Sequence record: PZ379075.1
From: a phage
Strand: one strand, 5' to 3'
DNA: 64,000 nucleotides
Of the stretch, positions 708-35,889 are shown piece by piece. Under the pieces are notes generated by a model. It searched no databases, had not been told where the DNA came from, and saw only the letters and a program-made list of their open reading frames with translations. The stretch's first letter is position 1. Each line of letters starts with the position of its first letter. A program made the position numbers and the translations under genes.

Positions 708-1580
708 ATGTCTAAAGTAGCGATTAACCACTTGAACAAAGCAAACGAAAGCCTTTCCTCTTTAGGCTTAACCGTTGGTAGTCCTGATGCGTGGATGGAA
801 AACGAAAGTGCACGTAAAGGATTCAAAAACTCTGTAATGCTGGCTTGCTTGATCATTAACTCTACTGCGAACGCTTTACAGTGTGAAGATGAAAGCACGT
901 TCAAAGAGAACGGTTTTACCGATATGCAGGACGCTATTAATTGCTACATTCAAGCAAATTTAGATAGCTGGAATCAGAAGGATTGGCCTGAGTCATGCCG
1001 CGATGTGAAAGCTGAATTATCCCGCTTGTCTGTCATGGTTGAAGCATGGAATAAGAAAAACAAGAAACAGCCAATCAAGCCTACCGTTGCAAGTAAGATT
1101 ATGAAGTCTGTTAATCTGGCAAGTTATGCACTGGTTGCAGCGATCGGTGTTAGTGCACTGGTCACATCTCTTTCTGATAAAGCTATCGCTAGTTCTACTC
1201 CTGCAACTGATGCCGCTAGTGTCTTCTCTAGTTCCATCAATAAGGGTTGGATGATTTGCAACGGTGCGGATAGTGATGGAAGTACTATTGTATTAAAAAT
1301 GAAGTTTAGCAACGTAACTAATGATGGCGTTCTCTTTCAGTCTAAGACACTAGACAATCAGCCTAACAATGATCTAGTTCTCAAGCGCACCGATAGTGAC
1401 TCGGATATGGTTACATTTGGCACTGTACAACGTTACGAAGACGTTAAAGCTGTAACCAATCTAGTGAGTTATGGCCCGATCAATGAGTCGATGATTGCTA
1501 CCACTGTTTACAATAACGCTAATAACGCTGTTTATACCGTTCACGTTAGTTTAGCCAACTGTATTAAGGCTAGTAAGTAA
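708..1580 (+). CDS. hypothetical early protein (290 aa) with one internal hydrophobic segment
   Basis: Long ORF after strong promoter; start ATG preceded by AAGGAA; no recognised motif. Confidence 0.6.
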   Translation: MSKVAINHLNKANESLSSLGLTVGSPDAWMENESARKGFKNSVMLACLIINSTANALQCEDESTFKENGFTDMQDAINCYIQANLDSWNQKDWPESCRDVKAELSRLSVMVEAWNKKNKKQPIKPTVASKIMKSVNLASYALVAAIGVSALVTSLSDKAIASSTPATDAASVFSSSINKGWMICNGADSDGSTIVLKMKFSNVTNDGVLFQSKTLDNQPNNDLVLKRTDSDSDMVTFGTVQRYEDVKAVTNLVSYGPINESMIATTVYNNANNAVYTVHVSLANCIKASK

Positions 1581-1605
1581 ATAACCTATTTTCAGGAGTG
1601 TAAAA

Positions 1606-1872
1606 ATGGCTATCAAAGAAGTTAAGTTATCAAACGGCTTTTCTTGTTTTGTTGGTGGGCAATCTATCGAGTTTAATACACTTGATGGTCAGATAATCTT
1701 GCCTGTTATCACTTTTTGCAGGATGGAATATCAGCCTCTTAAAGATTGGCTAGCCTTTGCTGATTTCGAAATTACCCGCGATGATTTCAGATCAATCTAT
1801 ATTGACGGTGATTTGTCGCTGGCTAACCTGCTTAATCATGGTCTGATTGGGGATGATACCAATGGGAAATGA
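1606..1872 (+). CDS. hypothetical protein (88 aa)
   Basis: ORF with AGGAG RBS upstream; overlaps next ORF by start/stop coupling. Confidence 0.5.
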   Translation: MAIKEVKLSNGFSCFVGGQSIEFNTLDGQIILPVITFCRMEYQPLKDWLAFADFEITRDDFRSIYIDGDLSLANLLNHGLIGDDTNGK

Positions 1873-2122
1873 AACTATTGCGTTAATTGATACGCATAAT
1901 TACGGTGGCGTTACATTGTCCTTTGATGAATCAGTCGACGCTGGTTATTTGTCTTTTCTTTCTAAAGGTGAGATACAAAACATACGCTTTCCTATTGTCT
2001 GTTTAGTGCAAGATTATCTAACTGTTGGGAAGTATTTAGCCCAACGCGGGATTCTCCTGTCGCTGGAAGAAGTGGAACAGATTAGCGTAGCATTTTTTGG
2101 CGAGAATAGCAACGATGAATAG
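1847..2122 (+). CDS. hypothetical protein (91 aa)
   Basis: ORF translationally coupled to preceding gene. Confidence 0.45.
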   Translation: MGMIPMGNETIALIDTHNYGGVTLSFDESVDAGYLSFLSKGEIQNIRFPIVCLVQDYLTVGKYLAQRGILLSLEEVEQISVAFFGENSNDE

Positions 2123-2217
2123 TGATTATTTTTGGCGTTGCTTGTTTGGTGCGACCTTCCTGCTGTTCATTGCTGATATGCTGTATTCTTACATTCTCTA
2201 ACTAAAGGTTTATTATC

Positions 2218-2583
2218 ATGGGTGTTATCAAGTTTGTAGTGAAAGTATTTGTAGGCTTCTTTCTGGTTGTTCTCCTGTTAGGTGTCCTGCTGTCATCTAT
2301 GGGTAGCGTTAAGGCTGCAACATTCTCCCCTGATACGGTTGACGGTTTACAGTGTACCTATCTCGTAGAGAATTACGAAACTGGTAAACAGTCACCTAAA
2401 GTTATTATTTTGCATGTAAATGATTTTGATCATGTGCAATCAGATAACAAAGCTATTCTGCTGGTAAATGAAACTACCGGTAAACAAATCACGATAGATC
2501 ACTTGATGCGCTCATCGTTGACGCTCTTTGATGAGTCCATGAATGAAATTGAGTCCGGTAATGGTCAATGTGTAAATCCATAG
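2218..2583 (+). CDS. hypothetical membrane-anchored/secreted protein (121 aa)
   Basis: N-terminal hydrophobic stretch VGFFLVVLLLGVLLSSMGSVKA resembling signal anchor; ATG at 2218. Confidence 0.5.
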   Translation: MGVIKFVVKVFVGFFLVVLLLGVLLSSMGSVKAATFSPDTVDGLQCTYLVENYETGKQSPKVIILHVNDFDHVQSDNKAILLVNETTGKQITIDHLMRSSLTLFDESMNEIESGNGQCVNP

Positions 2584-6802: not shown

Positions 6803-6856
6803 AGCCGCCTTTGGGCGGCTTTTTGCGTTACCGCCTCCTTAATTGGAGGCTTTTTT
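6803..6856 (+). terminator. two tandem rho-independent terminators
   Basis: GCCGCC-TTTG-GGCGGC + TTTTT, then GCCTCC-TTAATT-GGAGGC + TTTTTT. Confidence 0.65.
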
Positions 6857-6882
6857 GTATCTATTATATAGGAAACCATGAA

Positions 6883-7695
6883 ATGAAAGCATTTGCATTG
6901 TCAGCTATTCTAGTTTTATCTGCCATTAGTGCCCCATCCTTTGCTCATTCTGACAAATGCTCACACTCTAAACAGTGTGAAGTCCAGCAGGGGCCGAAAG
7001 GTGATAAAGGAGAACAGGGTATTCAAGGCGAACAAGGTCCGAAAGGTGACAAGGGTGATCGCGGAGAGCAGGGCTTAAAAGGTGATACTGGATCGGCTGG
7101 CATCAATGGTAAAGATGGCATCAATGGTAAAGATGGCATTGATGGTAAAGATGGCATTGATGGTAAAGATGGCATCAATGGTAAAGATGGCATCAATGGT
7201 AAAGATGGCATTGATGGTAAAGATGGCATTGATGGTAAAGATGGCGCTCAAGGTGAAAAAGGTGATTCTGGTGCAGATGGTAAGAAAGGCGAAACTGGCC
7301 TAACTGGTGCAGCAGGTTTGAATGGCGTTGACGGATTAAATGGCAAAAATGGTAAAGATGCAGATATGTCTGCCGTTAATGCTAACGCCAAATCTATCAA
7401 AGCTCTGGAACAATCCACCAACAAACGTTTTGCTTCTTTGCAAAAACAAGTAGACCGTAACCGTGATCATGCCTCTGCTGGTATTTCTGGCGTGGCTGCA
7501 ATGGCTAACATCCCGCAAGTAAGTCAAGGATCTGCTTTCTCTGTTGGTGCTGGGGTAGGTGCTTACGATGGTGAATCTGCTCTTGCTATTGGTGTTAGTG
7601 CTCGTTTCAATGAAAACGTAGTAACTAAAGCATCAGTGGCAATGACTTCAGAGAGTGACGCTGTTCTGGGCGCTGGTGTAAGTTACGAGTGGTAA
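6883..7695 (+). CDS. secreted collagen-like repeat protein with YadA-like (trimeric autotransporter) C-terminal membrane anchor
   Basis: Signal peptide MKAFALSAILVLSAISAPSFA; about 50 Gly-X-Y triplets; C-terminal segment ending GAGVSYEW matches YadA-anchor beta-barrel signature. Confidence 0.65.
   Translation: MKAFALSAILVLSAISAPSFAHSDKCSHSKQCEVQQGPKGDKGEQGIQGEQGPKGDKGDRGEQGLKGDTGSAGINGKDGINGKDGIDGKDGIDGKDGINGKDGINGKDGIDGKDGIDGKDGAQGEKGDSGADGKKGETGLTGAAGLNGVDGLNGKNGKDADMSAVNANAKSIKALEQSTNKRFASLQKQVDRNRDHASAGISGVAAMANIPQVSQGSAFSVGAGVGAYDGESALAIGVSARFNENVVTKASVAMTSESDAVLGAGVSYEW
7100..7243 (+). repeat. Tandem 18-bp repeat GGCAT(C/T)(A/G)ATGGTAAAGAT x8 (encodes GI(N/D)GKD collagen units)
   Basis: Direct reading; causes spurious antisense ORFs 7023-7229 and 7082-7303. 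Confidence 0.85.
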
Positions 7696-7805: not shown

Positions 7806-8195
7806 ATGTTGACATTGACTATTTATTATGAGGCAGGGAATCAGCCAACCGCATGTAAGGCTTTAGTTGCGGATACCGTGATAAATAGAATGGCCCAACG
7901 AAAACTGACCGCTGAACAGGTGATAAGACAAAAGAACCAGTTTGAGTGGATTCCGGTACTATTAAAACAGGAGAAACCTTATAAACGTTATGTAAAGCTG
8001 ATTCGTGATAAAAATCCGATGACTAAGCAAGCCATTGGAGAAAGCGAGCGACTTGCTAAACGTGCCCTTAAGAAGAATTATGTTCCGCTGTACAGTGGGA
8101 CTTACTTTCAGAGTAAGAGCGAAGGGGTGCCAAAATGGTATGCCAATCCTATGTATTGTGGTGATTTAGTGTTCGATAATAGCTCTAGGGAATAA
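7806..8195 (+). CDS. SleB/CwlJ-like cell-wall hydrolase domain protein
   Basis: Motif IYYEAGNQ...ALVADTVINR resembles the EARGE...VxNR signature of the SleB-type hydrolase family; frame is open from 7779. Confidence 0.45.
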   Translation: MLTLTIYYEAGNQPTACKALVADTVINRMAQRKLTAEQVIRQKNQFEWIPVLLKQEKPYKRYVKLIRDKNPMTKQAIGESERLAKRALKKNYVPLYSGTYFQSKSEGVPKWYANPMYCGDLVFDNSSRE

Positions 8196-8395
8196 TCACT
8201 AGTGCCAGATTTGACAAACTAAATTCCTTTATAAACCAACCACTTAGTAAATTTATTGAAAAAGATGGCAGTATTCTGGGACTATGGGTAATGCTCTGTA
8301 TATAGACCCTTTGAAAATTTCTTAGAAAATAAGTTTACTAAATATAACTTACTTAAATAATATTACTTTTAATCTCTGATAAAAGGGTAAATAAT

Positions 8396-8692
8396 ATGAC
8401 TTTAGAAGTATATAAATTCCTTTTTGTAAGCTGTTTAACTATCAGCGTTCTAGGATTTATTATTCTCAGAAACAAAGCAGCAAGCTGGGAGAGAATGTAT
8501 AAATCCCTAGTTCGAGTGGATGAGATGTATAATGAGAAAGTTAAAGTAACACTTAACGATCTTATTATGCAAGTAGAGGACAGAAACAAGCGTCTTCAGA
8601 ACCTCAACCACGAAGTGTTACGCCTTGCTCGTGCTAATGAAGACTTGCGAGTGGCTATTGCTAAACAGCAGGAGATTAACAATGAAGCATGA
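8396..8692 (+). CDS. hypothetical protein with N-terminal TM helix and coiled coil (98 aa)
   Basis: Hydrophobic N-terminus FLFVSCLTISVLGFIIL followed by charged helical region. Confidence 0.5.
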   Translation: MTLEVYKFLFVSCLTISVLGFIILRNKAASWERMYKSLVRVDEMYNEKVKVTLNDLIMQVEDRNKRLQNLNHEVLRLARANEDLRVAIAKQQEINNEA

Positions 8693-8939
8693 TATTAATA
8701 CAGCCCCTGTAGTCAAGCAACTGAAAGACCTGAAGGTGGGGAGTGTTTTTGAAACTGTTCCACCTAAAAATAAAATATATCTTACAGTAAAGCTAGATTC
8801 CTCAACCGTTTATTCAGCTAGTTGGAAGCCTGACGAAAGAGTAGTAGTAGATCTCACTTCGGATAGAATAACAATGTTGAGAAAAGATACTGTTGTTCAG
8901 GTAGTTGATAATGCTCGACTTACCAATAAGGTGGATTAA
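8682..8939 (+). CDS. small paralogous-family protein (member 1, GxVF motif family)
   Basis: About 85 aa; shares N-terminal MK...L..GxVF and mid-protein pattern with 10+ neighbours; start ATG 8682 overlaps upstream stop. Confidence 0.55.
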   Translation: MKHDINTAPVVKQLKDLKVGSVFETVPPKNKIYLTVKLDSSTVYSASWKPDERVVVDLTSDRITMLRKDTVVQVVDNARLTNKVD

Positions 8940-8941
8940 AG

Positions 8942-9178
8942 ATGAAAGTTAATATTAAATCCGATCGTACAATGCTTCGCTTAAATAACATGAAGCCGGG
9001 CGTTCTATTTGAGCGTAAAGACTCTCTTTATATTAGAACCGACACACTATACGCAGATAACTATGTGAACTGTGTTGATGTGGTAACTGGAAAGCTCATG
9101 CCTTTTAAACGGGATGAAGTCTGCCAAGTACGTAGTGATCTTCACATAACCAACATAGAGGCTAAAGATGAAGATTGA
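8942..9178 (+). CDS. small paralogous-family protein (member 2)
   Basis: Motif PGVLFERK; tandem, coupled starts. Confidence 0.55.
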   Translation: MKVNIKSDRTMLRLNNMKPGVLFERKDSLYIRTDTLYADNYVNCVDVVTGKLMPFKRDEVCQVRSDLHITNIEAKDED

Positions 9179-9419
9179 TCTTGAGATGAAAGCTAAAGAA
9201 TTGTGTGTGGGTGATTTGAAACTTGGTGATGTATTCCAAGTTAAGGCAACATGTATTGATTATTACATGATCGTTCAGTTATATACACCACATGTGTCAG
9301 AGACTGATCTTCGGAATGGTTGTGTAGTGCTCAGTTTAAGCACCAATCAAGTAATGAAGCTAGATTCAAACTTACCTGTTTCAGTTATCCATGATGCAGT
9401 AATTACCAATCGGAAGTGA
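9168..9419 (+). CDS. small paralogous-family protein (member 3)
   Basis: Motif LGDVFQVK. Confidence 0.55.
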   Translation: MKIDLEMKAKELCVGDLKLGDVFQVKATCIDYYMIVQLYTPHVSETDLRNGCVVLSLSTNQVMKLDSNLPVSVIHDAVITNRK

Positions 9420-9634
9420 ATATGAACATTGAAAAGAAGGTTGTTGACGAGGCTGTTCAGTTACGATCTCTTGAAACACATGATGTATTTGTGTGGGGAG
9501 GCAGTCTGTTTCAGAAATCTGCTTATGCTGTAGAGGGCGGGGTTCGTTGTTTTAATATCTTCAACAATGAGATGCAAATCCTTCCTAACTTCGCTCATGT
9601 TAATAAACTTATCCACCTTTCTATATATCAATAA
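9416..9634 (+). CDS. small paralogous-family protein (member 4)
   Basis: Motif THDVFVWGG; ATGA start/stop overlap. Confidence 0.5.
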   Translation: MNMNIEKKVVDEAVQLRSLETHDVFVWGGSLFQKSAYAVEGGVRCFNIFNNEMQILPNFAHVNKLIHLSIYQ

Positions 9635-9644
9635 GGGCAATTAG

Positions 9645-9863
9645 ATGGAAATTAAAGTAGTTGATTATCCTAAATATGCAAATGCAGAGGACGTTAAAGG
9701 TGGTGATGTTTTCTCTTATGATAAACGTTTCTGGCTGATGCTAGAAGATAAAACCCCTGATGGTTTGTGTAAGGCTGCTAACTTGAGCAGTGGTTCTGTT
9801 GAAGTCTTCGGTCTATCAACCACTGTTATGCCACGACCTGATCTGTGTTTATCCCAAAAGTAA
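9645..9863 (+). CDS. small paralogous-family protein (member 5)
   Basis: Motif GGDVFSYD. Confidence 0.55.
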   Translation: MEIKVVDYPKYANAEDVKGGDVFSYDKRFWLMLEDKTPDGLCKAANLSSGSVEVFGLSTTVMPRPDLCLSQK

Positions 9864-9871
9864 CACCGACT

Positions 9872-9976
9872 TATAGCCCTTGTGTTTATCAGAGGGCTAT
9901 GTGAGGGTGTTCCTCATTAACTTATTAATTCAGGCATATGCCACACCGCTAGGGAGAGCTTGCTCGAACATCCGGT
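9872..9976 (+). other. Conserved about 105-bp structured noncoding element, copy 1 (second copy 15307-15417)
   Basis: Shared blocks TATAGCC..hairpin..GGGCTATGTGAG ... GCTAGGGAGAG ... CTCGAACATCCG in both copies. Confidence 0.5.
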
Positions 9977-10374
9977 GTTAGACTAAAACCTGTTAATTTT
10001 CGAAAGACTTTCCGATATGTAGGGGTACGTATTGGTTTGGGATTCAGGAGACTTCCTAGGGGTAGGAAGTCTTCACCAGTTGGAATAAGAGATAGCTCTA
10101 GAACCTGAACTCTTAGGCAGAGAAGGTCGGCAATGAGTACGCGGTCAGAATTAGCCTCCTGACTAGGGCTATCCCTTATATCAACTGGCAATAATGCCTC
10201 CACTAACAAAGAGAGATAGGTATGAAAGTATCAACCAAACGTATGAACCGCCCTGAACGTATGGATGCAGTAGCTAATGGTGCTCTGAAACTGGAAGGCT
10301 TTTGGATTCATGCAATGTCAGCCATCCGTAACAAGCAAGGTAATTGGACGTATAACAGTTAACAAATAAAGAGA

Positions 10375-10404
10375 GGCTGCCTTCGGGCGGCCTTTGTTGT
10401 TTTA
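10375..10404 (+). terminator. rho-independent terminator
   Basis: GGCTGCC-TTCG-GGCGGCC hairpin plus TTTGTTGTTTT. Confidence 0.65.
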
Positions 10405-10447
10405 ATTAAGGGACAACTCTTACTTAAACTAACAAGAGGAAGCTAAA

Positions 10448-10624
10448 ATGTCTAAGCAAACAATCAAACATACGCAATCTGGTTACTCTTATGTCAACTC
10501 TCCTTGCTGCGGTGCTCGTATTAATCTGGTTAAGGAAGAGGTTCGTATCGTTCAGCGTGGCGCTACTGTTGTTCGTTCATGCTGTGTCTGTGGTAATGAT
10601 ATTTTTATCAAAGGTAAAGTATGA
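10448..10624 (+). CDS. small Cys4 zinc-ribbon protein (58 aa, below track cutoff)
   Basis: Translated by hand: MSKQTIKHTQSGYSYVNSPCCGARINLVKEEVRIVQRGATVVRSCCVCGNDIFIKGKV; stop overlaps next ATG. Confidence 0.4.
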   Translation: MSKQTIKHTQSGYSYVNSPCCGARINLVKEEVRIVQRGATVVRSCCVCGNDIFIKGKV

Positions 10625-10845
10625 TTATCGTTCGCTCTGAGCCTAAAGATAACACTTTTGGTAGCCTCCGTAATGGTGATGTGTTCTCTCTAGAGATAGA
10701 TGGGGATACAAAACCTCCTTTATATATGAAGGTTATGCACAGACATGCTATCTGTATAAATAATCCTGAAACAAGATTTACGTTTGACAGAAGTTGTCCT
10801 GTCAAATTTTATCAAGCTACCCTAAACGTTAGGAGAGTAGGATGA
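10621..10845 (+). CDS. small paralogous-family protein (member 6)
   Basis: Motif NGDVFSLE. Confidence 0.5.
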   Translation: MIIVRSEPKDNTFGSLRNGDVFSLEIDGDTKPPLYMKVMHRHAICINNPETRFTFDRSCPVKFYQATLNVRRVG

Positions 10846-11093
10846 AAAACTTCCAAGCTGCACCAATAACTAAAGTGATTGCAGTTAATGATGTGATGAT
10901 GGCTGTTCCTCTGAACACTCGTTATATTGCAATTGACAAGATGGGATATGTATGGGCTTGGAAGATCAAGCCTAGTTATAACGCACTGTTTGATGAGTTT
11001 GTTTGTACTGGTACTTACAGTCCTACATTCTTGGGTTTGTTTAGTGAGTTTGATGGTCAGTATAAAATCATCACACTCCCTGCTTGTGCTTGA
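10842..11093 (+). CDS. hypothetical small protein (83 aa)
   Basis: ORF coupled to preceding gene; family membership unclear. Confidence 0.4.
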   Translation: MKNFQAAPITKVIAVNDVMMAVPLNTRYIAIDKMGYVWAWKIKPSYNALFDEFVCTGTYSPTFLGLFSEFDGQYKIITLPACA

Positions 11094-11273
11094 GGTTATT
11101 ATGTTCAAGTGGTTTAAACGTTTCTTCCATCTCCATGATTGGGAGACAATAAAAGAAGTTCGTTTACACATATATAATGAGATTGGTCAAATAGAAGACA
11201 CAGGTACTCGTTATATACTTCGATGTAAAACATGTGGTCATATCACCAAGCGAGATATGATCTAAATAATTCT

Positions 11274-11349
11274 GCGCTCTTAGCTCAATGGATAGAGCAG
11301 TAGCCTTCTAAGCTATTGGTTACAGGTTCGAGTCCTGTAGGGCGCACCA
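11274..11349 (+). tRNA. tRNA-Arg (anticodon TCT)
   Basis: Hand-folded cloverleaf: acceptor GCGCTCT/AGGGCGC, D-stem GCTC/GAGC, anticodon loop CTTCTAA with TCT at 11307-11309, T-arm ACAGG-TTCGAGT-CCTGT, discriminator A, encoded CCA. Confidence 0.85.
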
Positions 11350-11489
11350 CATTTAGGGCTAGTATGGGTGCGGCACCAGAGTTAGTGTATCCCTGTTGAG
11401 GCAAGTGCTTTTATAACAGTGGGAATTACTTTCTTAGTGAGCTTCTGGTTCGATTCCAGATAGTCCACCAAATCTAATAGGAGGTAATT

Positions 11490-11789
11490 ATGAGTTGGGG
11501 TGGTGTAATATCCTTAATCTGTATCTTCCTTGTCTGCATAGCCCTTACAGGCTGCGTACAGAGCCGTCCTGATGGATGGTGTGCAGTAGCAGTGGAAGGT
11601 GTTTGTGTTTCTCGCTGGTATAAGGGTGAGAAGATTCCTTCTGGTGAAATTGATATGCGATGGAACGGAGCAACCTGTTCTAATGCTAACCCTTCTATCA
11701 ACGAAGAGAAGTCTACGCCAGACAATGTTGTGATTGATACAGCGTTGTGGTGTGGTGGCTCTGTAACAACAACCGGTAAGGAGTGGTGA
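11490..11789 (+). CDS. putative Cys-rich lipoprotein (99 aa)
   Basis: Signal peptide with lipobox LTGC (ICIFLVCIALTGCVQ); overlapping minus ORF 11474-11827 considered spurious. Confidence 0.5.
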   Translation: MSWGGVISLICIFLVCIALTGCVQSRPDGWCAVAVEGVCVSRWYKGEKIPSGEIDMRWNGATCSNANPSINEEKSTPDNVVIDTALWCGGSVTTTGKEW

Positions 11790-11790
11790 T

Positions 11791-11988
11791 ATGAATTACA
11801 CATCCACAAAGGTGTTAATTGATTCAATTAATAGCTCCTCAGAAGCTGTACAGGAGCGTTTAATACAAGATGTTAGCAATGACATTAAGTTCTTTGTTAA
11901 GAGCCGCCTGTTAGGTTCTAAGGCTTATTACAGAGCTAAAGCAGAGCTTACAAAGAGGGTGTTTCTTTTACATGGTTTGGTATATTAA
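11791..11988 (+). CDS. hypothetical small protein (65 aa)
   Basis: ORF from track. Confidence 0.35.
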   Translation: MNYTSTKVLIDSINSSSEAVQERLIQDVSNDIKFFVKSRLLGSKAYYRAKAELTKRVFLLHGLVY

Positions 11989-11997
11989 GGAACTTAT

Positions 11998-12219
11998 ATG
12001 AAACTAGACTCTAAGCAGTCACTTAAAACCGTTGAGCTGTCCACGCTGCCAAACGGAAGTATTTTTGGTCATGATAAACACTTCTGGATTAAAACAGACA
12101 TCATAGACGATGGATATATCACCTGTGTCAATCTTTGGAACGGTTCAGTGGATGGTTATCGCCCTAGCGCAAAGGTAGTCCCTCAGCCTGATGCTAAGGC
12201 TGTAGGTTTAGTTTACTAA
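11998..12219 (+). CDS. small paralogous-family protein (member 7)
   Basis: Motif NGSIFGHD. Confidence 0.5.
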   Translation: MKLDSKQSLKTVELSTLPNGSIFGHDKHFWIKTDIIDDGYITCVNLWNGSVDGYRPSAKVVPQPDAKAVGLVY

Positions 12220-12370
12220 GGAGTTCATATGAGCTGTTATGGTGGCGGTGAAGTGTGTGATGACGACGACATGGAATCCAATGGTACATGCCCTGACTGT
12301 GGGTGTGAGACATTTGATGGAGTGTCAGTATACCCTGCCTGTAGTTACTCACCAGTGATCTGTAAAACAT

Positions 12371-12628
12371 GTGGAGATCAACCTTGTGACCAGTCTTGTT
12401 AGTATGTTAATAGCCTATCTGATAGGATCAGTAGTATCAGGTGTTCTGATTAAGATTATAGATGTTAAAGGTAATCAGTGTTTCAGAGGTTGGGATGGTG
12501 AGCCAGACCTCGGAAAGATAGCAGCTATGGTTTTCTTGTGGCCTATTATTGCTGTACTATTTATAGCACTCGTATCATGGGCTGCTCTTTGGGATTTCAT
12601 CCTTCCTAACAAAAAGTATGAGGACTAA
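12371..12628 (+). CDS. small membrane protein with two predicted TM helices
   Basis: Hydrophobic segments LVSMLIAYLIGSVVSGVLI and AAMVFLWPIIAVLFIALVSWAAL; real start may be internal. Confidence 0.45.
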   Translation: MEINLVTSLVSMLIAYLIGSVVSGVLIKIIDVKGNQCFRGWDGEPDLGKIAAMVFLWPIIAVLFIALVSWAALWDFILPNKKYED

Positions 12629-12629
12629 T

Positions 12630-13293
12630 GACTGAAGAATTTTTAAAGTGGTTTGGTGATACCTTCAAAGAGTATCTATTCTCTCCAGAAGACTTTGAAG
12701 AACTGAAAACCTACACTTGGTTGGCTTGGAGAGATAGCCGACGAGAGATGAATAAGTAATATCGTGAAGGATTCTTACGAGAGTCCTTTGAGATAGGACT
12801 TCAGATCTCCTATCAAACTAACATTCATGTAACTAGCCCATAAGGGCGTTACCCTTTAATAACCCAGCCCACTAAGGGGGCGGGAGTTTAGTGCTGGATT
12901 AGCATAACGCTTATTCCTACAAAGGCAACCGATTGTTAGGTCTTACATGCAATATTAATTAATAGGATAAGGGAGGATTCGTCCCCTCCCCCTATTCATA
13001 AACTATTAGGAGAGTACATTAGCTGATTAGCTGTGGAAGGTAGGCCGATATCTACAGCGTGGCCCAGAGCTAGTGTACTCCCCAATAACTTTAGGGTAAA
13101 TGTGGAACAACCTTTTAATTACAGGTATAGCTTATGGGACTCAGTAATGCAGAGTCTACGGTAAAGCAGTCGCCCGTGGTCGAATGACCGTATGCCCATT
13201 GGATGCATTCCTTTGGTGATGGCTAGGGAGTCCGAGCGTAGGTTCGAATCCTACACCTGTAACCAAATTGAATAATAGCTAATTGGAGGATGT
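12630..13293 (+). other. ORF-poor structured region with a tRNA-like 3' module (T-arm GTAGG-TTCGAAT-CCTAC, acceptor, CCA ending at 13265)
   Basis: Canonical T-loop and CCA at 13238-13265 but no clean 76-90 nt cloverleaf found; several hairpins (e.g. GGGAGG...CCTCCC at about 12971-12995). Confidence 0.3.
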
Positions 13294-13605
13294 ATGAAAG
13301 CACGAAGAACTATATGGACTCCGATGCAGATTGAAAATCTTCGGAGACTAATCAAAGAGTACTCGGTTCAAGAAGTTGCTCAGATTATGAATGTAACGGA
13401 GAATGCAGTTAACGCAGCTTGTACTAAATTCGGAATATCAAGAGCTTCAATCCGAGTTAAATGGTCTGAAGAAGAAGACCAGTTCCTTATCCGTAATGCT
13501 GGGTTCATGTCTATTCAGAGAATGGCTGACATGCTCGGTAGAAGTTATGCTGCTGTACAGAACAGAGCATGTATGCACCTTAACATTAGCCTCAAACTTA
13601 AATAG
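13294..13605 (+). CDS. putative helix-turn-helix DNA-binding protein (103 aa)
   Basis: Two HTH-like segments (VQEVAQIMNVTENAVNAA and SIQRMADMLGRSYAAVQNRA). Confidence 0.45.
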   Translation: MKARRTIWTPMQIENLRRLIKEYSVQEVAQIMNVTENAVNAACTKFGISRASIRVKWSEEEDQFLIRNAGFMSIQRMADMLGRSYAAVQNRACMHLNISLKLK

Positions 13606-13613
13606 GAATCAAT

Positions 13614-13868
13614 ATGAAAGTTAACGAATTGAACAAAACTATCAAGACTGTGAAACTCCACACTCTGAAGAAGGGCGATACCTTCCGGCTGGAAGAGAAC
13701 GGTCCAATTCATATGGTCTGTACTGCGGCATCTACTAATTGGGTAGAAGTTGCACGAGATCGAGTCGTGTGTGTCAGACTGGAAGATGGACACTTAAGTG
13801 GCCCCGTTGAGGGCATCTCTGTTATTCCTGTTAAGGTTGAAGCTAACGTTATTAAGGATTCTAAATGA
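13614..13868 (+). CDS. small paralogous-family protein (member 8)
   Basis: Motif KGDTFRLE. Confidence 0.55.
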   Translation: MKVNELNKTIKTVKLHTLKKGDTFRLEENGPIHMVCTAASTNWVEVARDRVVCVRLEDGHLSGPVEGISVIPVKVEANVIKDSK

Positions 13869-14116
13869 AGATTACCCACAAGAAAGAAGAAGTGACCACG
13901 ATTGATCTCAACTCCCTCCCCAGCGGAGCAGTGTTTAAATTCCCTGAGAGTGCTACTCTCTATGTTAAAGGGTCTGTGTCTGAAAGTCCTAATGTAACCG
14001 TTAACTCTGATCGAACAATTACTCTTCGTCTATCCGATGGTAACGTAACAGCACCTTCTATCTGGTGCCGAGTTGTTCCTGTATCAGCAGAACTTTTGGT
14101 GGATAATACGCAATGA
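13865..14116 (+). CDS. small paralogous-family protein (member 9)
   Basis: Motif SGAVFKFP; ATGA overlap. Confidence 0.55.
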   Translation: MKITHKKEEVTTIDLNSLPSGAVFKFPESATLYVKGSVSESPNVTVNSDRTITLRLSDGNVTAPSIWCRVVPVSAELLVDNTQ

Positions 14117-14358
14117 AAATCATCCCAAAGAAAAAGGATAATACGGTACGATTGGAAACAATCATTCCCGGAAACCCTTTCGTGGTTCAGAACGGAAGTG
14201 CCTCTCCTCAGTATTACATGAGGGTTGAAAATGCTTCTGGTAACATCCGTATAGCCAGTGGTTGGGTTCCTGTGGTAAACCTTTCCACAGGTGTGTTATC
14301 TGTTAAAGGTCTTGATGATCAGGTAGAAATGATTCGTATGTCAGTGGTTCAGGAGTAG
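14113..14358 (+). CDS. small paralogous-family protein (member 10)
   Basis: Motif GNPFVVQN; ATGA overlap. Confidence 0.55.
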   Translation: MKIIPKKKDNTVRLETIIPGNPFVVQNGSASPQYYMRVENASGNIRIASGWVPVVNLSTGVLSVKGLDDQVEMIRMSVVQE

Positions 14359-14612
14359 TGCATATGAGCATTATTAACATTAAAGTTAAAGACAAAGAGG
14401 AAAAAATCCTCCGCGTCAGAGATCTAAATATGTCAGATGTGTTCACTCTCCAAGAGTGCCAAAATCAAAAGGTTTATATGATGACAGCTAAAAGCAGGGG
14501 TTGTCAACCTGCTGGAGCTGTTAACCTAGGCACTGGAGAACTACGTGTCATCTCTGGTGATATGGTTGTTGGTGAGAAGTTTATTAAGGCTGAAATCATC
14601 TTAACTTCGTAG
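14358..14612 (+). CDS. small paralogous-family protein (member 11)
   Basis: Motif MSDVFTLQ. Confidence 0.5.
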   Translation: MHMSIINIKVKDKEEKILRVRDLNMSDVFTLQECQNQKVYMMTAKSRGCQPAGAVNLGTGELRVISGDMVVGEKFIKAEIILTS

Positions 14613-14736
14613 GGAAAACAAATGAGACGTAAAGCATATTCTTATGACGATATGATTAACCAGAAAGGCTTCGGTCAACGACAGCCTGACGGTTCAATTA
14701 TCTGGTTCGTAAACGGACAGAAAAAGGTAGCTAAAT

Positions 14737-14790
14737 AAGCCCTCTTCTCTCCTCCTTTTAGTACTATGACGCCTCTCTGTGGGCGGCCCG
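14737..14790 (+). repeat. Repeated motif AGCCC..CTC..TTTTAGTACTATGACGC (second copy; first copy 6731-6775)
   Basis: 17-bp core TTTTAGTACTATGACGC identical at 6741-6757 and 14756-14772. Confidence 0.6.
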
Positions 14791-14793
14791 ATT

Positions 14794-14830
14794 TGCGTAG
14801 GGAATTCCCTCTACGCAGCCATAATTTTTT
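14794..14830 (+). terminator. hairpin with T-tract (terminator-like)
   Basis: TGCGTAG-GGAATTCCCT-CTACGCA followed by AATTTTTT. Confidence 0.5.
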
Positions 14831-14844
14831 AAGGAATTTCCCCT

Positions 14845-15078
14845 ATGTCTAAAGTAAGCGCAATCGATGCAATCCGTCAACCGTTTCAGTTCCAATCCAA
14901 ATCAACCCAAACCTTCAGCGAACCTAAGCAAATTCGCTTGGGTGGTACAGAGAAGACTGTGTTTGATCTGGCTAAAAACAAGAGCGTTACCGTAGTTGAT
15001 GGTGGCACTCTGGTTAACGTTTCTCATCGCATCCGCACTGGCAAAACTGCCAAAGATCGTGCTAAGAAAGGTGAGTGA
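14845..15078 (+). CDS. hypothetical protein (77 aa)
   Basis: ORF from track. Confidence 0.45.
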   Translation: MSKVSAIDAIRQPFQFQSKSTQTFSEPKQIRLGGTEKTVFDLAKNKSVTVVDGGTLVNVSHRIRTGKTAKDRAKKGE

Positions 15079-15293
15079 TGATAACACTTGTGTCTGTAGT
15101 TTACAGATTACACTATCGCCTAGATAAAGGAAAATCTTATAAATGCAAGAGTAAGACAGGGAATCTATGCTCTGTAGAGAACAACTCTGGTCAATGGGTG
15201 AATGTTCCTTGTTGCTGGTTCAGGAAAGATTTGACTAGCAAAGAGATTGACGAAATTCTTAGTGATGATTTTGTAAAATCAGGTGATTTTTAG
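15075..15293 (+). CDS. hypothetical protein (72 aa)
   Basis: ORF coupled to previous. Confidence 0.4.
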   Translation: MMITLVSVVYRLHYRLDKGKSYKCKSKTGNLCSVENNSGQWVNVPCCWFRKDLTSKEIDEILSDDFVKSGDF

Positions 15294-15306
15294 TTGTAGT
15301 AACGCC

Positions 15307-15417
15307 TATAGCCTTCTTCGGAGGGCTATGTGAGTTATTCTGACTCAACTAACCTAATCTTAATATATTTCCCGTATGGGGCCGATGCTAGGGAGAGGAA
15401 CATTCCTCGAACATCCG
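15307..15417 (+). other. Conserved structured noncoding element, copy 2
   Basis: Homologous to 9872-9976 (see above). Confidence 0.5.
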
Positions 15418-15683
15418 TCGGATAGATATTTTAAGAGCAGGTTATCCACAGATATTGGGTAATATCTTTTTGTATTTAAAGCTTGACTCTTTTCGGAGAG
15501 TCCTTTTTTAAATTCAACGAGAGGAAATATGTCTAAATTAGATTTAAAACTGCTAGCAGCAGCGGTAGTGATTTGTGCACTAGCACTGGTAACGCAGAGA
15601 ACATCTGGATTTATTCAGTGTTTCTTTTCTGGGCAATCCACTTATCAGTGGGTTATTGACGAGTGTAAACAACAGGAGTAAGT

Positions 15684-27998: not shown

Positions 27999-29312
27999 AT
28001 GATTGTTATCCCGATTAACCAAATTGAAGATAAGGTTGCTCAACAACCTGATATCACTGTTGGTCGTCACTTCATTGAACAATTGATTAACAACAACTTG
28101 ATTCCAGATGGTATCTGTCCCATCATTACTGGTGGGGCTGTTCGTGATGCTGTCCTTAATAACATAGCTCCACATGACATTGATATCTTTATTGTCAGAG
28201 GACAAACACCAAGAACTCAAAACACTTTCATCCCAACTGATCGTTGGCAAGAGCTTGGACGGGAGATTGAAAGTAATGTGAAGGAATGGCTAGAGTCACA
28301 AGATATTGAATATGCATCACTTCTTGCTGAAGCTACAAACGAATCCTATGCTGGGGGTTCTCAATTAACATTCACTGATATTATTGAGTTTCAGTGGAAT
28401 GGGGTTCGTATCCAATTCATGTTTAATTATCCTACTTCTATTGAAGAGGTATTGGATAATTTTCCTATGATGTGCCGTGGTGCGATGACTCTTGACAACT
28501 TATTCATGACTTCTCACGGATATTTGGCTATGACTTCCCCTTGTCCAGTGGTTGTCTATAGTCGTGAAATCAGGTATGTTCACAAGAAGTGGCCTAACTC
28601 ACAAGTGTTGAGATTTTCCTCTCCAGCAGTTGCGCATCAATACATGGCCCAAACTCGATATCTTCCCACACCTCAGCCAGTTAGTCATCTAGTCAATGGA
28701 TTAGGTCAGGTTTCTCTTATTGAAGATACAACAAGTGCTCTATATTGTGTTAACCAAGACATGAGTCGATTCTTTGGAATCCCTTATGAAGAGATTCAGA
28801 TTATGTCTAGTCTTCACGGTTCTGGTCAGATTCATGCGTATTGGTCTGAGGGGTTGACAAATTTAACGACTAACACGGGTGGTGATCTGCTTGGTCGAGA
28901 AGAGGAACCTAACCGACACAATGCAATTGAAGGGGTGTTTGTAGCCCCTGCAATGCGTCGAGCACAAGAGTCACGAAGAGAAAGCCCTACTCGTAGAACA
29001 TCTTTTGAAGAAGCTCTTGGTATTACAAGTGATTCTATGGAGCGATGGATGGCTAGACCCTCTCGTGGTCGACCAAACGGCTTAACTGTTAGCGCACGTC
29101 AGTTCTCTGGTCAGGGTTTCGCTGTTGGTGATATCAACGCCCCTTCTCGTGTTATCTGGACTGATGAAGGTATGGAACAAGATTTGGGAGATAGTCTCGC
29201 TGATCGCTTTATTGCTAACAACCCTGAAGTATTAGAACCTCAAACCCGTACAGTTCGGTTTGCCGATGAAGCGGGTCGTGGAATCTCTTTTGACATGGAA
29301 ACAAATAACTAA
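27999..29312 (+). CDS. tRNA nucleotidyltransferase / poly(A) polymerase-family protein (CCA-adding-enzyme-like)
   Basis: Head-domain motif ITGGAVRDAVL...HDIDIFI; ATG 27999 used rather than track start 27942. Confidence 0.6.
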   Translation: MIVIPINQIEDKVAQQPDITVGRHFIEQLINNNLIPDGICPIITGGAVRDAVLNNIAPHDIDIFIVRGQTPRTQNTFIPTDRWQELGREIESNVKEWLESQDIEYASLLAEATNESYAGGSQLTFTDIIEFQWNGVRIQFMFNYPTSIEEVLDNFPMMCRGAMTLDNLFMTSHGYLAMTSPCPVVVYSREIRYVHKKWPNSQVLRFSSPAVAHQYMAQTRYLPTPQPVSHLVNGLGQVSLIEDTTSALYCVNQDMSRFFGIPYEEIQIMSSLHGSGQIHAYWSEGLTNLTTNTGGDLLGREEEPNRHNAIEGVFVAPAMRRAQESRRESPTRRTSFEEALGITSDSMERWMARPSRGRPNGLTVSARQFSGQGFAVGDINAPSRVIWTDEGMEQDLGDSLADRFIANNPEVLEPQTRTVRFADEAGRGISFDMETNN

Positions 29313-29321
29313 GGAATAAGA

Positions 29322-29855
29322 ATGAGTTTACTAGGAAGTATTGAACTGCATGATGTAATTGACAATGGCTATCTGGATGCGGAGCATAAGTATGTTAACG
29401 CTGCTAGTGTGGATATCCGTATTGGTGATACTATCCTTGTTGAAGAACAGGCTGATGGCATCGTTGATATTGATGCGAAAGAGAATCTTCAGTGGAAGGA
29501 AGTAAAGATTCCTGAAGAGGGTTTGGTTATCACTCCGGGTCAGTTCTTCTTGGCTCACTCTATGGAGGAGTTTAATCTTCCAGATAACATCTCAAGTCTG
29601 TTTGTTCTGCGTTCGTCTATGGCTCGTTGTGGTTTGAACCACCTTCACGCCGGTTGGGCAGATGCAGGATTTAATAGTAGTAAGCTGACATTTGAATTCC
29701 ATAACGTAACCAAGCACCACAGCTTACGAGTTCGTGCTGGTATGCGTGTTGGTCAGATGGTTATGTTTGAGCACTCTCATGCAGGGGAACATTCCTACGC
29801 AGTGAAGGGTCGTTATAATAACTCTGAAGGTGTGGTTGCATCTAAAGGTGTGTAA
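29322..29855 (+). CDS. dcd: dCTP deaminase
   Basis: RSSMARCGL...HAGWADAG...GMRVGQMVMF closely parallels bacterial Dcd motifs. Confidence 0.7.
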   Translation: MSLLGSIELHDVIDNGYLDAEHKYVNAASVDIRIGDTILVEEQADGIVDIDAKENLQWKEVKIPEEGLVITPGQFFLAHSMEEFNLPDNISSLFVLRSSMARCGLNHLHAGWADAGFNSSKLTFEFHNVTKHHSLRVRAGMRVGQMVMFEHSHAGEHSYAVKGRYNNSEGVVASKGV

Positions 29856-35348: not shown

Positions 35349-35603
35349 ATGTCTATTGTAAAAATCGTAAATATCATTGATGTAACTCGTACCGGTAAAA
35401 CTATCAGTTGGAAATTCACCAATAAGCATAGAGGTTCAGAGAACATCATTCGTTCTATGATTCAACAAAACCCAAATACAGCTCGCACTAACGTACTCCT
35501 TCGAGGAGCTGATGGAAAATTTATCTCTTATAAGAATAAGAACGTAGAAAAATCTTTCCGTGTTGCAGTAGAAAATCTCATCCCATTCCCTAAAGGAGTT
35601 TAA
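35349..35603 (+). CDS. small paralogous protein (pair member 1, KGKFISY / PFPKG)
   Basis: Shares ART(N/H)V(L/M)LR...GKFISY...(L/F)(I/M)PFP(K/R)G with next gene. Confidence 0.5.
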   Translation: MSIVKIVNIIDVTRTGKTISWKFTNKHRGSENIIRSMIQQNPNTARTNVLLRGADGKFISYKNKNVEKSFRVAVENLIPFPKGV

Positions 35604-35604
35604 T

Positions 35605-35889
35605 ATGAATAAGTTAGCTATGGTTCAAATTCGGGACACATACCCTAACCGCCCGGAGCAGAAACCGCGTACTTGGTCTTATCTGTTAGCTGAAAGTAAG
35701 ACTATTGACAAATACGCTGTAGGGATTGATGCTATTCCAACTAGTATCACATTGCTCCCTCACAAAACAGCCAGAACCCATGTGATGTTACGTGATAGCA
35801 AAGGTAAGTTTATCTCTTATCGTGATTCACGAATCAATAATGAGATTAAATCTGCTATGGAATTTTTGATGCCATTCCCAAGAGGTTGA
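35605..35889 (+). CDS. small paralogous protein (pair member 2)
   Basis: See above. Confidence 0.5.
   Translation: MNKLAMVQIRDTYPNRPEQKPRTWSYLLAESKTIDKYAVGIDAIPTSITLLPHKTARTHVMLRDSKGKFISYRDSRINNEIKSAMEFLMPFPRG

Follow-up and report, generated by a model that had tools for sequence, protein, structure and literature searches.

Our profile searches show that eleven short open reading frames (ORFs) of a phage genome are homologous paralogues that all encode the same small protein domain, one not described before, and that they constitute the largest expansion found of this domain family. The window, that is, the whole stretch of 64,000 nucleotides analysed (sequence record PZ379075.1), comes from a coliphage of the phiEco32/Kuravirus group that is 98–99% identical to ShigP1 and Bas90. 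The domain family is real, undescribed and expanded within a known phage group, and structural models assign it to the SH3-like small beta-barrels with five strands. As for its function, which we infer from gene position, fold class and evolutionary pattern, a role of the array in host takeover or anti-defence is plausible.

Eleven paralogous genes in four blocks

A first-pass annotation of this region had described a single tandem array of paralogous proteins of 75–85 aa, chained by overlapping stop and start codons. The genes do lie close together, but they are split into four blocks (8682–9863, with five genes; 10621–10845; 11998–12219; and 13614–14612, with four genes), between which lie unrelated genes and a tRNA-Arg (Table 1). 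The proteins are indeed similar in size, but the measured range is 70–85 aa, and only some of the junctions within blocks are overlaps (-11, -4, -4, -4 and -1 nt), the others being gaps of 2–10 nt. Every copy is preceded by a Shine-Dalgarno-like sequence of its own; that of g8682, which overlaps the upstream gene (8396–8692) by 11 nt, is an AGGAG ribosome-binding site. Two starts probably need correction. In g9416, ATG 9422 is likelier than GTG 9416 (72 aa), since it brings the motif to residue 20, where the other copies have it, and agrees with the annotation of Bas90. In g14358, ATG 14364, which lies 10 nt after an AGGAG and is the start annotated in Bas90, is likewise preferable to GTG 14358 (84 aa).

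Table 1. Family members and neighbouring features, with E-values from leave-one-out HMMs trained on window members and from the HMM trained on external sequences only.
Feature	Coordinates	Strand	Product	phiEco32 orthologue	Leave-one-out E	External E	Remarks
Member 1 (g8682)	8682..8939	+	85 aa, pI 9.3		1.2e-4 (rank 1/642)	6.8e-11	Orthologues only in Paul (dN/dS 0.09), myPSH2311 and Bas90; absent from phiEco32 and SU10
Member 2 (g8942)	8942..9178	+	78 aa	gp115	2e-6	8.9e-16	dN/dS 0.02–0.17; in 6/6 Kuravirus genomes compared
Member 3 (g9168)	9168..9419	+	83 aa	gp114 (70% identity)	7.5e-9	2.1e-12	dN/dS 0.09–0.26
Member 4 (g9416)	9422..9634	+	70 aa from probable start ATG 9422			2.5e-9	Most divergent copy; HDVF for GDVF; orthologue in Bas90 only
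Member 5 (g9645)	9645..9863	+	72 aa, pI 4.9	gp113	3e-6	5.8e-14	dN/dS 0.05–0.14
Member 6 (g10621)	10621..10845	+	74 aa, pI 9.2	gp109	2.1e-3 (rank 1)	1.1e-8	Isolated copy flanked by zinc-ribbon mini-protein and g10842; absent from Bas90, Paul and myPSH2311
Member 7 (g11998)	11998..12219	+	73 aa	gp104			Structure modelled
Member 8 (g13614)	13614..13868	+	84 aa		4.6e-10	8.4e-18	Structure modelled; opens four-gene block 8 nt past HTH regulator gene; different variant, gp98, at this position in phiEco32
Member 9 (g13865)	13865..14116	+	83 aa	gp97	7.8e-6	1e-13	ATGA start/stop overlap
Member 10 (g14113)	14113..14358	+	81 aa	gp96	1.6e-7	4.7e-15	dN/dS 0.09–0.35
Member 11 (g14358)	14364..14612	+	82 aa from probable start ATG 14364	gp95	6.5e-6	1.2e-12	SDVF for GDVF
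g10842, unrelated non-member	10842..11093	+	83 aa				phrog_1972, E 5.9e-18
HTH (sigma70 region-4-like) regulator	13294..13605	+	103 aa				Directly upstream of four-gene block; Pfam Sigma70_r4_2 3e-7; phrog_323 'transcriptional regulator, D5-like' 2.6e-28
tRNA-Arg(TCT), between blocks	11274..11349	+	tRNA				ARAGORN; Rfam tRNA 72 bits

The paralogy of all eleven firmly named ORFs is borne out by two kinds of HMM search against the 642 ORFs that are 40 aa or longer in the six reading frames. In leave-one-out searches trained on window members, ten of the proteins each ranked first (E 4.6e-10 to 2.1e-3), and g9416, borderline with these window-only profiles (E 0.015–0.75), was every time the best-scoring ORF outside the training set. 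An HMM trained on 123 sequences, none of them from the window, recovered all eleven at E 4.3e-18 to 1.1e-8, with the next window ORF at E 0.11, a separation of at least seven orders of magnitude from the other 631 ORFs. Independent PHROG profiles cross-match as well, phrog_6570 alone matching 7 of the 11. The copy at 10842, put forward earlier as a possible twelfth, is not a member: it ranked 405th (HMM E 110), was missed by the external profile, lacks the motif and belongs to phrog_1972.

The family would dissolve if pairwise similarity did not exceed chance, as the first-pass annotation had recognised. Identities between window members are indeed only 15–30% and several pairwise BLAST E-values exceed 0.01, as expected if the resemblance were one of chance or composition, or the ORFs non-functional filler. 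Some pairs are closer (BLASTP E 5e-11 for g13865 against g13614; 40% identity across 47 aa for g9645 against g11998), the HMM searches are significant, and the leave-one-out and external profiles, together with the orthologue dN/dS values (0.02–0.44), refute this explanation, against which the concordant AlphaFold models also speak; we accord it practically no chance. Apart from the codons of the motif, the copies share no repeat at the DNA level, which marks the duplications as old.

A motif common to the members, also claimed earlier, is present in 11/11 as [G/S/H]-x-x-F at residues 19–26; its F is invariant in 134 aligned sequences and its G is replaced in two copies. Members share the G-(D/S)-(V/I/T)-F turn at residues 19–24 with its invariant F, a (C/A)-V-N-L-x-x-G segment and a length of about 70–85 aa. 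Conservation extends over the N-terminal M-K-I, L17, G20-D-V-F23, Y30-M-K, (C/A)-V-N-L-x-x-G49, V60-x-P and A-E-L-V-I, positions that are mostly hydrophobic or of turn type. By contrast, consensus positions 34–41, between the two longest strands, and the remaining loops are variable, both in sequence and in length. No transmembrane segment, signal peptide or enzymatic or catalytic signature was seen in the members.

A predicted SH3-like barrel

The AlphaFold models of g11998 and g13614 are confident and concordant (AlphaFold2 pLDDT 90.1 and pTM 0.75 for g13614). They predict a strongly bent antiparallel five-stranded barrel that superposes on solved SH3-like domains, and the top Foldseek matches of the g13614 model in the PDB are EF-P and eIF5A. 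The predicted fold thus resembles the KOW-like 'translation protein SH3-like' barrel of the EF-P/eIF5A N-terminal domain, without sequence relationship: no member matched the KOW or EF-P N-terminal Pfam domains (PF00467, PF08207; E up to 1), and when hhalign compared the family profile with the N-domain of E. coli EF-P (the EF-P sequence was entered by hand, a caveat on the figure), the probability was 0.3%. Unlike that domain, the phage proteins stand alone at 70–85 aa and carry a hypervariable stretch between the two longest strands, where EF-P and eIF5A have a conserved modified Lys/Arg. From the Tudor, PWWP, UvrD-CTD, CarD and VapX barrels they differ in having only two strongly conserved aromatic positions (F23, Y30), with neither sequence similarity nor a nearby partner gene. 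Compared at the sequence level with the cage of three to five aromatics in the Tudor/PWWP 'royal family', the phage family conserves only F23 (100%) and Y/F/W30 (97%), positions 14 and 54 being F, L or I.

This resemblance invites a reading in which translation or transcription is the target. As barrels like EF-P/eIF5A domain I, KOW or Tudor, the proteins would redirect the expression of host genes by docking to the ribosome, to tRNA, to RNA polymerase or to nucleic acid, for instance through antitermination of the long early transcript or by biasing translation together with the phage tRNA-Arg. The nearest structures, with two independent models and two programs, are EF-P/eIF5A domain I, uL2, the Spt5 KOW and RNA-polymerase-binding Tudor domains (UvrD, CarD); within a giant homologue, one repeat has a weak Pfam match to EFP_N, and in Bacteroidota the domain occurs in five basic copies on an SprT-like (DNA-associated) protease. 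Antitermination in these phages is described as still undefined in the 7-11 paper (PMC8948821), which we count on the same side. We consider this reading unlikely.

A narrower form of counter-defence would be for each barrel to imitate an SH3-like antitoxin, VapX for example, and so disarm a toxin of a host toxin-antitoxin or abortive-infection system. We find this quite improbable: VapX scores no better than many other SH3-like barrels listed, there is no sequence relationship to it, and no toxin partner gene adjoins any copy. A VapX-type identity, which would entail an adjacent cognate toxin gene and specific VapX similarity, is not supported.

EF-P domain I is also a classic target of amino-acid-ligating modification enzymes, and the proteins could be substrates or adaptors of the ATP-grasp/amidoligase/glutamine amidotransferase/gamma-glutamyl-cyclotransferase cluster that the phage encodes further downstream, being tagged with peptides or amino acids like EF-P or ribosomal protein S6. 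Besides the fold, K2 and K32 are fairly conserved, and domain family and enzyme cluster occur together in Kuraviruses and in Proteus phage 3H10_20. This circumstantial support is countered by N4 and fHe-Yen3-01, which have one copy each and no enzyme cluster annotated within the 25 kb and 19 kb examined, and by the family alignment, in which no Lys, Glu or C-terminal residue is strictly conserved; we regard the idea as very unlikely.

Distribution, copy number and selection

The family comprises 1,788 clusters at 50% identity from many phage groups, a count in which a few entries are false positives due to low complexity or repeats (P0126, P0211). Unrelated metagenomic phage contigs also contain the domain as tandem arrays and as two-domain fusions. 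The 24 structural matches in BFVD are all uncharacterised, and the PHROG bins of the window proteins (6570, 7832, 7431, 8365, 16423, 9955, 12612, 33163 and 10911) are all of 'unknown function'; PHROGs spreads the family over about ten distinct groups that carry no annotation, whereas the cross-hits found here join them into one superfamily. No Pfam or NCBIfam model matched the family, which also has no solved structure, window members had no Pfam hit at E up to 1, no characterised anti-defence or host-takeover inhibitor was matched in Pfam, NCBIfam or PDB sequences, PADLOC, whose models cover defence rather than anti-defence, gave no hit for window members, and no mention of the family was found in the searchable literature. 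The gp21 proteins of N4 and fHe-Yen3-01 and proteins of 3H10_20 belong to the same family by profile HMM (E 8e-15 to 2e-17) and structure, while PaP3 ORF65 and the Myduc proteins resemble it by structure only.

Gordonclarkvirinae carry 4–11 copies (11 in the window, 10 in Bas90, nine each in phiEco32 and SU10, eight in Paul, seven in myPSH2311 and four in SU7), whereas the other phages checked usually have one or two strong copies, sometimes plus a few weak ones: one each in N4 and Yersinia phage fHe-Yen3-01, one strong and one weak in Vibrio 1.101.O, and two strong and three weak in Proteus 3H10_20. The proteins of N4, fHe-Yen3-01 and 3H10_20, like those of PaP3 and Myduc, are all uncharacterised. 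Orthologues with at least 54% identity exist for 9/11 members in one or more of the named Kuraviruses phiEco32, SU10 and Paul; eight members match phiEco32 gp95–97, 104, 109 and 113–115. The orthologues of each copy are under purifying selection, with all dN/dS values but one at or below 0.35 and dS up to about 2.4. Over seven genomes we delineated 17 orthogroups, whose presence and absence form a mosaic between close relatives. Such a variable set, with purifying selection on every copy, is the pattern expected for an accessory host-interaction repertoire, an interpretation that is partly supported.

Early expression and proposed role

The gene cluster holding the members is orthologous to phiEco32 genes 95–115, a sigma70-driven early class by macroarray and primer extension (PMC8948821; see also PMC9965538). 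By this orthology, which supports the earlier description of the array as early genes, the eleven genes probably belong to the early class, and their products would appear within the first minutes after infection. A simple promoter scan revealed no excess of sigma70-like sites within the region, consistent with read-through from upstream promoters. Among the 34 proteins that mass spectrometry detected in a phage preparation (PMC4281155), none is an SU10 orthologue of the members.

We propose that each paralogue may be a soluble cytoplasmic binder whose rigid barrel scaffold would carry a diversified surface, binding, and thereby blocking or redirecting, a host macromolecule of its own or a particular allelic variant of one. 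Together the genes would form an accessory repertoire for host takeover or counter-defence that recombination between related phages would reshuffle. The chances of this proposal seem to us evenly balanced. Dissenting evidence comes from the uniformly low dN/dS, which gives no hint of the positive selection that arms-race interfaces often show, and from three orthogroups common to 6/6 Kuravirus genomes compared, which fit a housekeeping role in infection equally well. Moreover, nucleic acids, ribosomes and RNA polymerase are also among the ligands of SH3-like barrels, and the fold therefore favours none of the readings. In a bolder version, which we hold to be doubtful, the hypervariable loops of each paralogue on this modular scaffold would neutralise a different host immunity or stress factor and thus explain the resistance of Gordonclarkvirinae to RM and most tested defence systems; these phages are reported to be remarkably RM-resistant without a known anti-restriction gene (PMC11990801).

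Significance and comparison with known systems

About ten 'unknown' PHROGs are merged here into one domain family with a confident predicted fold and a copy-number map, and Bas90, a BASEL-collection phage 98% identical to the window, offers a short testable gene list. Kuraviruses and other Gordonclarkvirinae are common, have broad host ranges and are candidates for therapy; they reportedly withstand bacterial immunity remarkably well, with no counter-defence gene known in them. If the paralogues were target-specific inhibitors, the family would be a source of many new small proteins that inhibit host factors, and a natural case of a repertoire evolving on one scaffold; otherwise, it would still be a missing Pfam-type family covering many proteins of the phage 'dark matter'.

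Small accessory early-gene arrays are known from virulent phages, in anti-CRISPR and anti-defence loci and in the host-takeover modules of T4, T5, T7 and SPO1. The Kuravirus array resembles them in its early expression (here by orthology), its small and tightly packed genes and its mosaic repertoire. However, unrelated folds are usually mixed in those modules and loci, whereas in the Kuravirus array a single domain family has expanded to 11 copies.

A family of eleven probable early proteins

The eleven small ORFs at 8682, 8942, 9168, 9416, 9645, 10621, 11998, 13614, 13865, 14113 and 14358 (genes are named here by their start coordinates) form a single family of paralogous proteins. The first-pass annotation had counted eleven to twelve such paralogues in a tandem array; the eleven that it named are upheld, and its possible twelfth, the ORF at 10842, is rejected, with an E-value of 110, no motif and membership of phrog_1972. 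Among the twelve translated ORFs, BLASTP is significant for several pairs (13614/13865, 5e-11; 9645/11998, 1.5e-9; 8942/11998, 5e-6; 8682/9168, 7e-5) but insignificant for many others, and we therefore used profiles, which link all eleven. The best three hits of a seven-member profile among the remaining six-frame ORFs were 14113, 14358 and 10621. With leave-one-out profiles, ten members each ranked first of 642 ORFs (E 4.6e-10 to 2.1e-3) and the 9416 ORF was always next best (E 0.015-0.75), while a profile built exclusively from 123 outside sequences recovered 11/11 (E 4.3e-18 to 1.1e-8), and the next window ORF stood clearly apart (E 0.11). This last, at 24732-24947, was rejected as a further member on that value and an unconvincing sequence, and the outside-only profile found no other members elsewhere in the 64-kb window. 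Independent support comes from PHROG models, of which phrog_6570 matches seven members and 7832, 7431 and 8365 four or five each.

Copies are adjacent within blocks, but the array as a whole is split into four blocks parted by unrelated small genes (zinc-ribbon mini-proteins, a PF24052 phage lipoprotein, a membrane protein and an HTH regulator) and a tRNA-Arg (see table). Likewise, the proposed chaining of genes by overlapping stop and start codons applies to some within-block junctions (overlaps of 11, 4, 4, 4 and 1 nt), the others being gaps of 2-10 nt. Shine-Dalgarno-like sequences precede all copies. For two genes, ATG 9422 and ATG 14364 appear preferable to the GTG starts first proposed, because motif register and ribosome-binding-site spacing fit better; both are the annotated starts in Bas90. 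Apart from the GGTGATGT(T)TTC motif codons, the only DNA repeats that we found between copies were short and at chance level, which speaks against recent duplication or cassette repeats and implies that the duplications are ancient.

Coordinates of the family blocks, their neighbours and related loci
Feature	Coordinates	Strand	Description
Collagen-repeat ORF	6811-7695	+	Early region; signal peptide, collagen triple-helix repeats (PF01391, 9e-22), YadA-like anchor (PF03895, 2.6e-19)
98-aa protein	8396-8692	+	Overlaps first family member; phrog_12154
Family block 1	8682-9863		Five members
Cys-rich mini-protein	10448-10624	+	58 aa, CxxC pairs (zinc-ribbon-like); PHROG 18461
Family block 2	10621-10845		One member
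tRNA-Arg	11274-11349	+	Anticodon TCT, reads AGA (rare codon in E. coli); between family blocks
Phage lipoprotein	11490-11789	+	PF24052, 1e-34; among early genes
Family block 3	11998-12219		One member
Cys-rich mini-protein	12229-12402	+	57 aa, CxxC pairs (zinc-ribbon-like); PHROG 13157
HTH protein	13294-13605	+	103 aa, sigma70 region-4-like; phrog_323 'D5-like transcriptional regulator'
Family block 4	13614-14612		Four members
Second paralogue pair	35349-35603, 35605-35889	+	Adjacent; unrelated to the family
Contig L014 (metagenomic, phage-like)	1469-2456		Two single-domain family genes and one two-domain fusion, consecutive, right after a helicase gene
P0122 gene	L011 3583-5019; L012 5001-6437		Chromosomal; SusC/SusD-type (Bacteroidota-like) neighbourhood
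Proteus phage 3H10_20 (L009, Grimontviridae)	14974-15431		Two adjacent strong family copies, plus three weaker
Proteus phage 3H10_20 (L009)	22684-29786		Carboxylate-amine ligase/glutamine amidotransferase/ATP-grasp-like cluster; cluster and family both shared with Kuraviruses

Relatives, selection and repertoire

Positions 8000-15000 of the window are 98.7% identical to Shigella phage ShigP1, 98.1% to Escherichia phage SkaterBoy_Bas90 and 92-98% to further podophages of the phiEco32 type, among them SU10, ES17 and MN03 (Gordonclarkvirinae, genus Kuravirus), and public records label all the genes concerned 'hypothetical protein'. In phiEco32, the leftward-transcribed right-hand cluster constitutes the early class; its promoters, at the cluster start, are used by the host sigma70 RNA polymerase (PMC8948821; PMC9965538; PMC4281155). 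By orthology, the family genes would be expressed early.

Comparison with the orthologues in Bas90, phiEco32, SU10, Paul and myPSH2311 gave dN/dS values from 0.02 to 0.44, only one of them above 0.35, and dS reached ~2.4. This indicates clear purifying selection and real genes. Chance similarity or non-functional ORFs are refuted as an explanation of the family. Copy number falls from 11 in the window to 10 in Bas90, 9 in phiEco32 and in SU10, 8 in Paul, 7 in myPSH2311 and 4 in SU7 (Suseptimavirus). At an identity threshold of at least 50%, the 58 family genes of these seven genomes fall into 17 orthogroups, only three of them present in 6/6 Kuravirus genomes. The repertoire is mosaic between relatives: among the genomes compared, 9416 occurs only in the window and Bas90, 10621 is absent from Bas90, Paul and myPSH2311, and phiEco32 carries a different variant (gp98) in place of 13614.

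Conserved scaffold and predicted fold

The shared motif reported near residues 20-27 was borne out as [G/S/H]-x-x-F at residues 19-26, and its Phe is invariant in an alignment of 134 sequences. The conserved columns are mostly of hydrophobic or turn type (N-terminal M-K-I, L17, G20-D-V-F23, Y30-M-K32, (C/A)-V-N-L46, G49, V60-x-P and a C-terminal A-E-L-V-I), and consensus positions 34-41 and other loops are variable and indel-rich, both between paralogues and within orthogroups. Within orthogroups we saw no hot-spot of variability, the variable and conserved positions being those of the family-wide alignment. The pI of the window proteins ranges from 4.9 to 9.3; with a median of 5.2, the family at large is mildly acidic.

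No member matched Pfam, NCBIfam, PADLOC or PDB sequences. AlphaFold2, run with the 134-sequence alignment, gave confident models of 11998 (pLDDT 87.9, pTM 0.73) and 13614 (pLDDT 90.1, pTM 0.75), both composed of short beta strands. Sequence homology to EF-P domain I was rejected, profile comparison with the E. coli EF-P N-domain giving a probability of 0.3%. The nearest folds suggest that the proteins might act on the ribosome, RNA polymerase or nucleic acid, a reading that we regard as unlikely.

Spread of the family

When 1.84 billion cluster representatives were searched with a profile, 1,788 clusters scored E <=1e-3, a count that includes a few repeat-protein artefacts (e.g., P0126 and P0211). 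Among the best 150, 129 have a length of 60-100 aa, and in almost every one of these the match begins at residue 1. In other phages, BFVD structure matches and HMM scans identified single or few copies, all uncharacterised: N4 (gp21), PaP3 (ORF65), Yersinia fHe-Yen3-01 (gp21), Vibrio 1.101.O, Erwinia phage Cronus, Pectobacterium phage POP12, and Proteus 3H10_20 and Myduc. Fusions of two domains also occur, and the consecutive family genes of contig L014 imply that tandem amplification of the domain is not unique to Kuraviruses. In protein P0122, a SprT-like metallopeptidase domain is followed by five tandem, very basic family-domain repeats at the C-terminus; LpxK and RF-1 are among the housekeeping genes that surround its gene. 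The module recurs in two very large multi-repeat proteins (2,667 and 3,223 aa).

Neighbouring genes

The signal peptide, collagen repeats and YadA-like outer-membrane anchor of the collagen-repeat ORF make its product a phage-encoded trimeric-autotransporter-type adhesin; its homologues are named 'agglutinating adhesin' in phiEco32 and 'tail protein' in Bas90. The 98-aa protein is carried in databases as 'DNA helicase' (phrog_12154; Bas90 and SU10 annotations), probably an annotation error, since it has no Pfam match and is far too small. The tRNA-Arg, the sole Rfam match, is kept in phiEco32, Bas90, SU7 and Paul, and the PF24052 lipoprotein may have a role in superinfection exclusion. The Cys-rich mini-proteins, both 'unknown function' in PHROGs, are interleaved with family members. 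The HTH gene ends 8 nt upstream of the last family block; phiEco32, by contrast, has another organisation at this position (gp99/gp100). The members of the second paralogue pair share 50% identity over 40 aa (BLASTP 2.5e-12) and have no Pfam match.

Possible role and comparison with known systems

The family combines a conserved scaffold with diversified loops, has no catalytic or membrane features, and shows a copy-number expansion specific to Gordonclarkvirinae; each copy is under purifying selection, and the repertoire is mosaic. We propose, with about even confidence, that its members would act early in infection as stoichiometric binders, each for a different host macromolecule, in the service of host takeover or counter-defence. 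VapX-like antitoxin mimicry, really a sub-case of counter-defence, seems improbable, and a function as substrates or adaptors of the phage ATP-grasp/amidoligase cluster more improbable still. We reject a virion component, as the 34 proteins detected by mass spectrometry of SU10 preparations include none of the SU10 orthologues (PMC4281155).

Our searches found no literature on the paralogy, nor on toxicity or anti-defence screens that cover Kuraviruses. The unification of 'hypothetical proteins' across about ten PHROGs into one domain family, the confident assignment of its fold, its size of roughly 1,800 clusters, and its up to 11-fold expansion in Kuraviruses all appear undescribed in the literature searched. 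The kind of system is nevertheless already known, since arrays of small early genes are familiar in virulent phages and the fold is among the commonest small folds.
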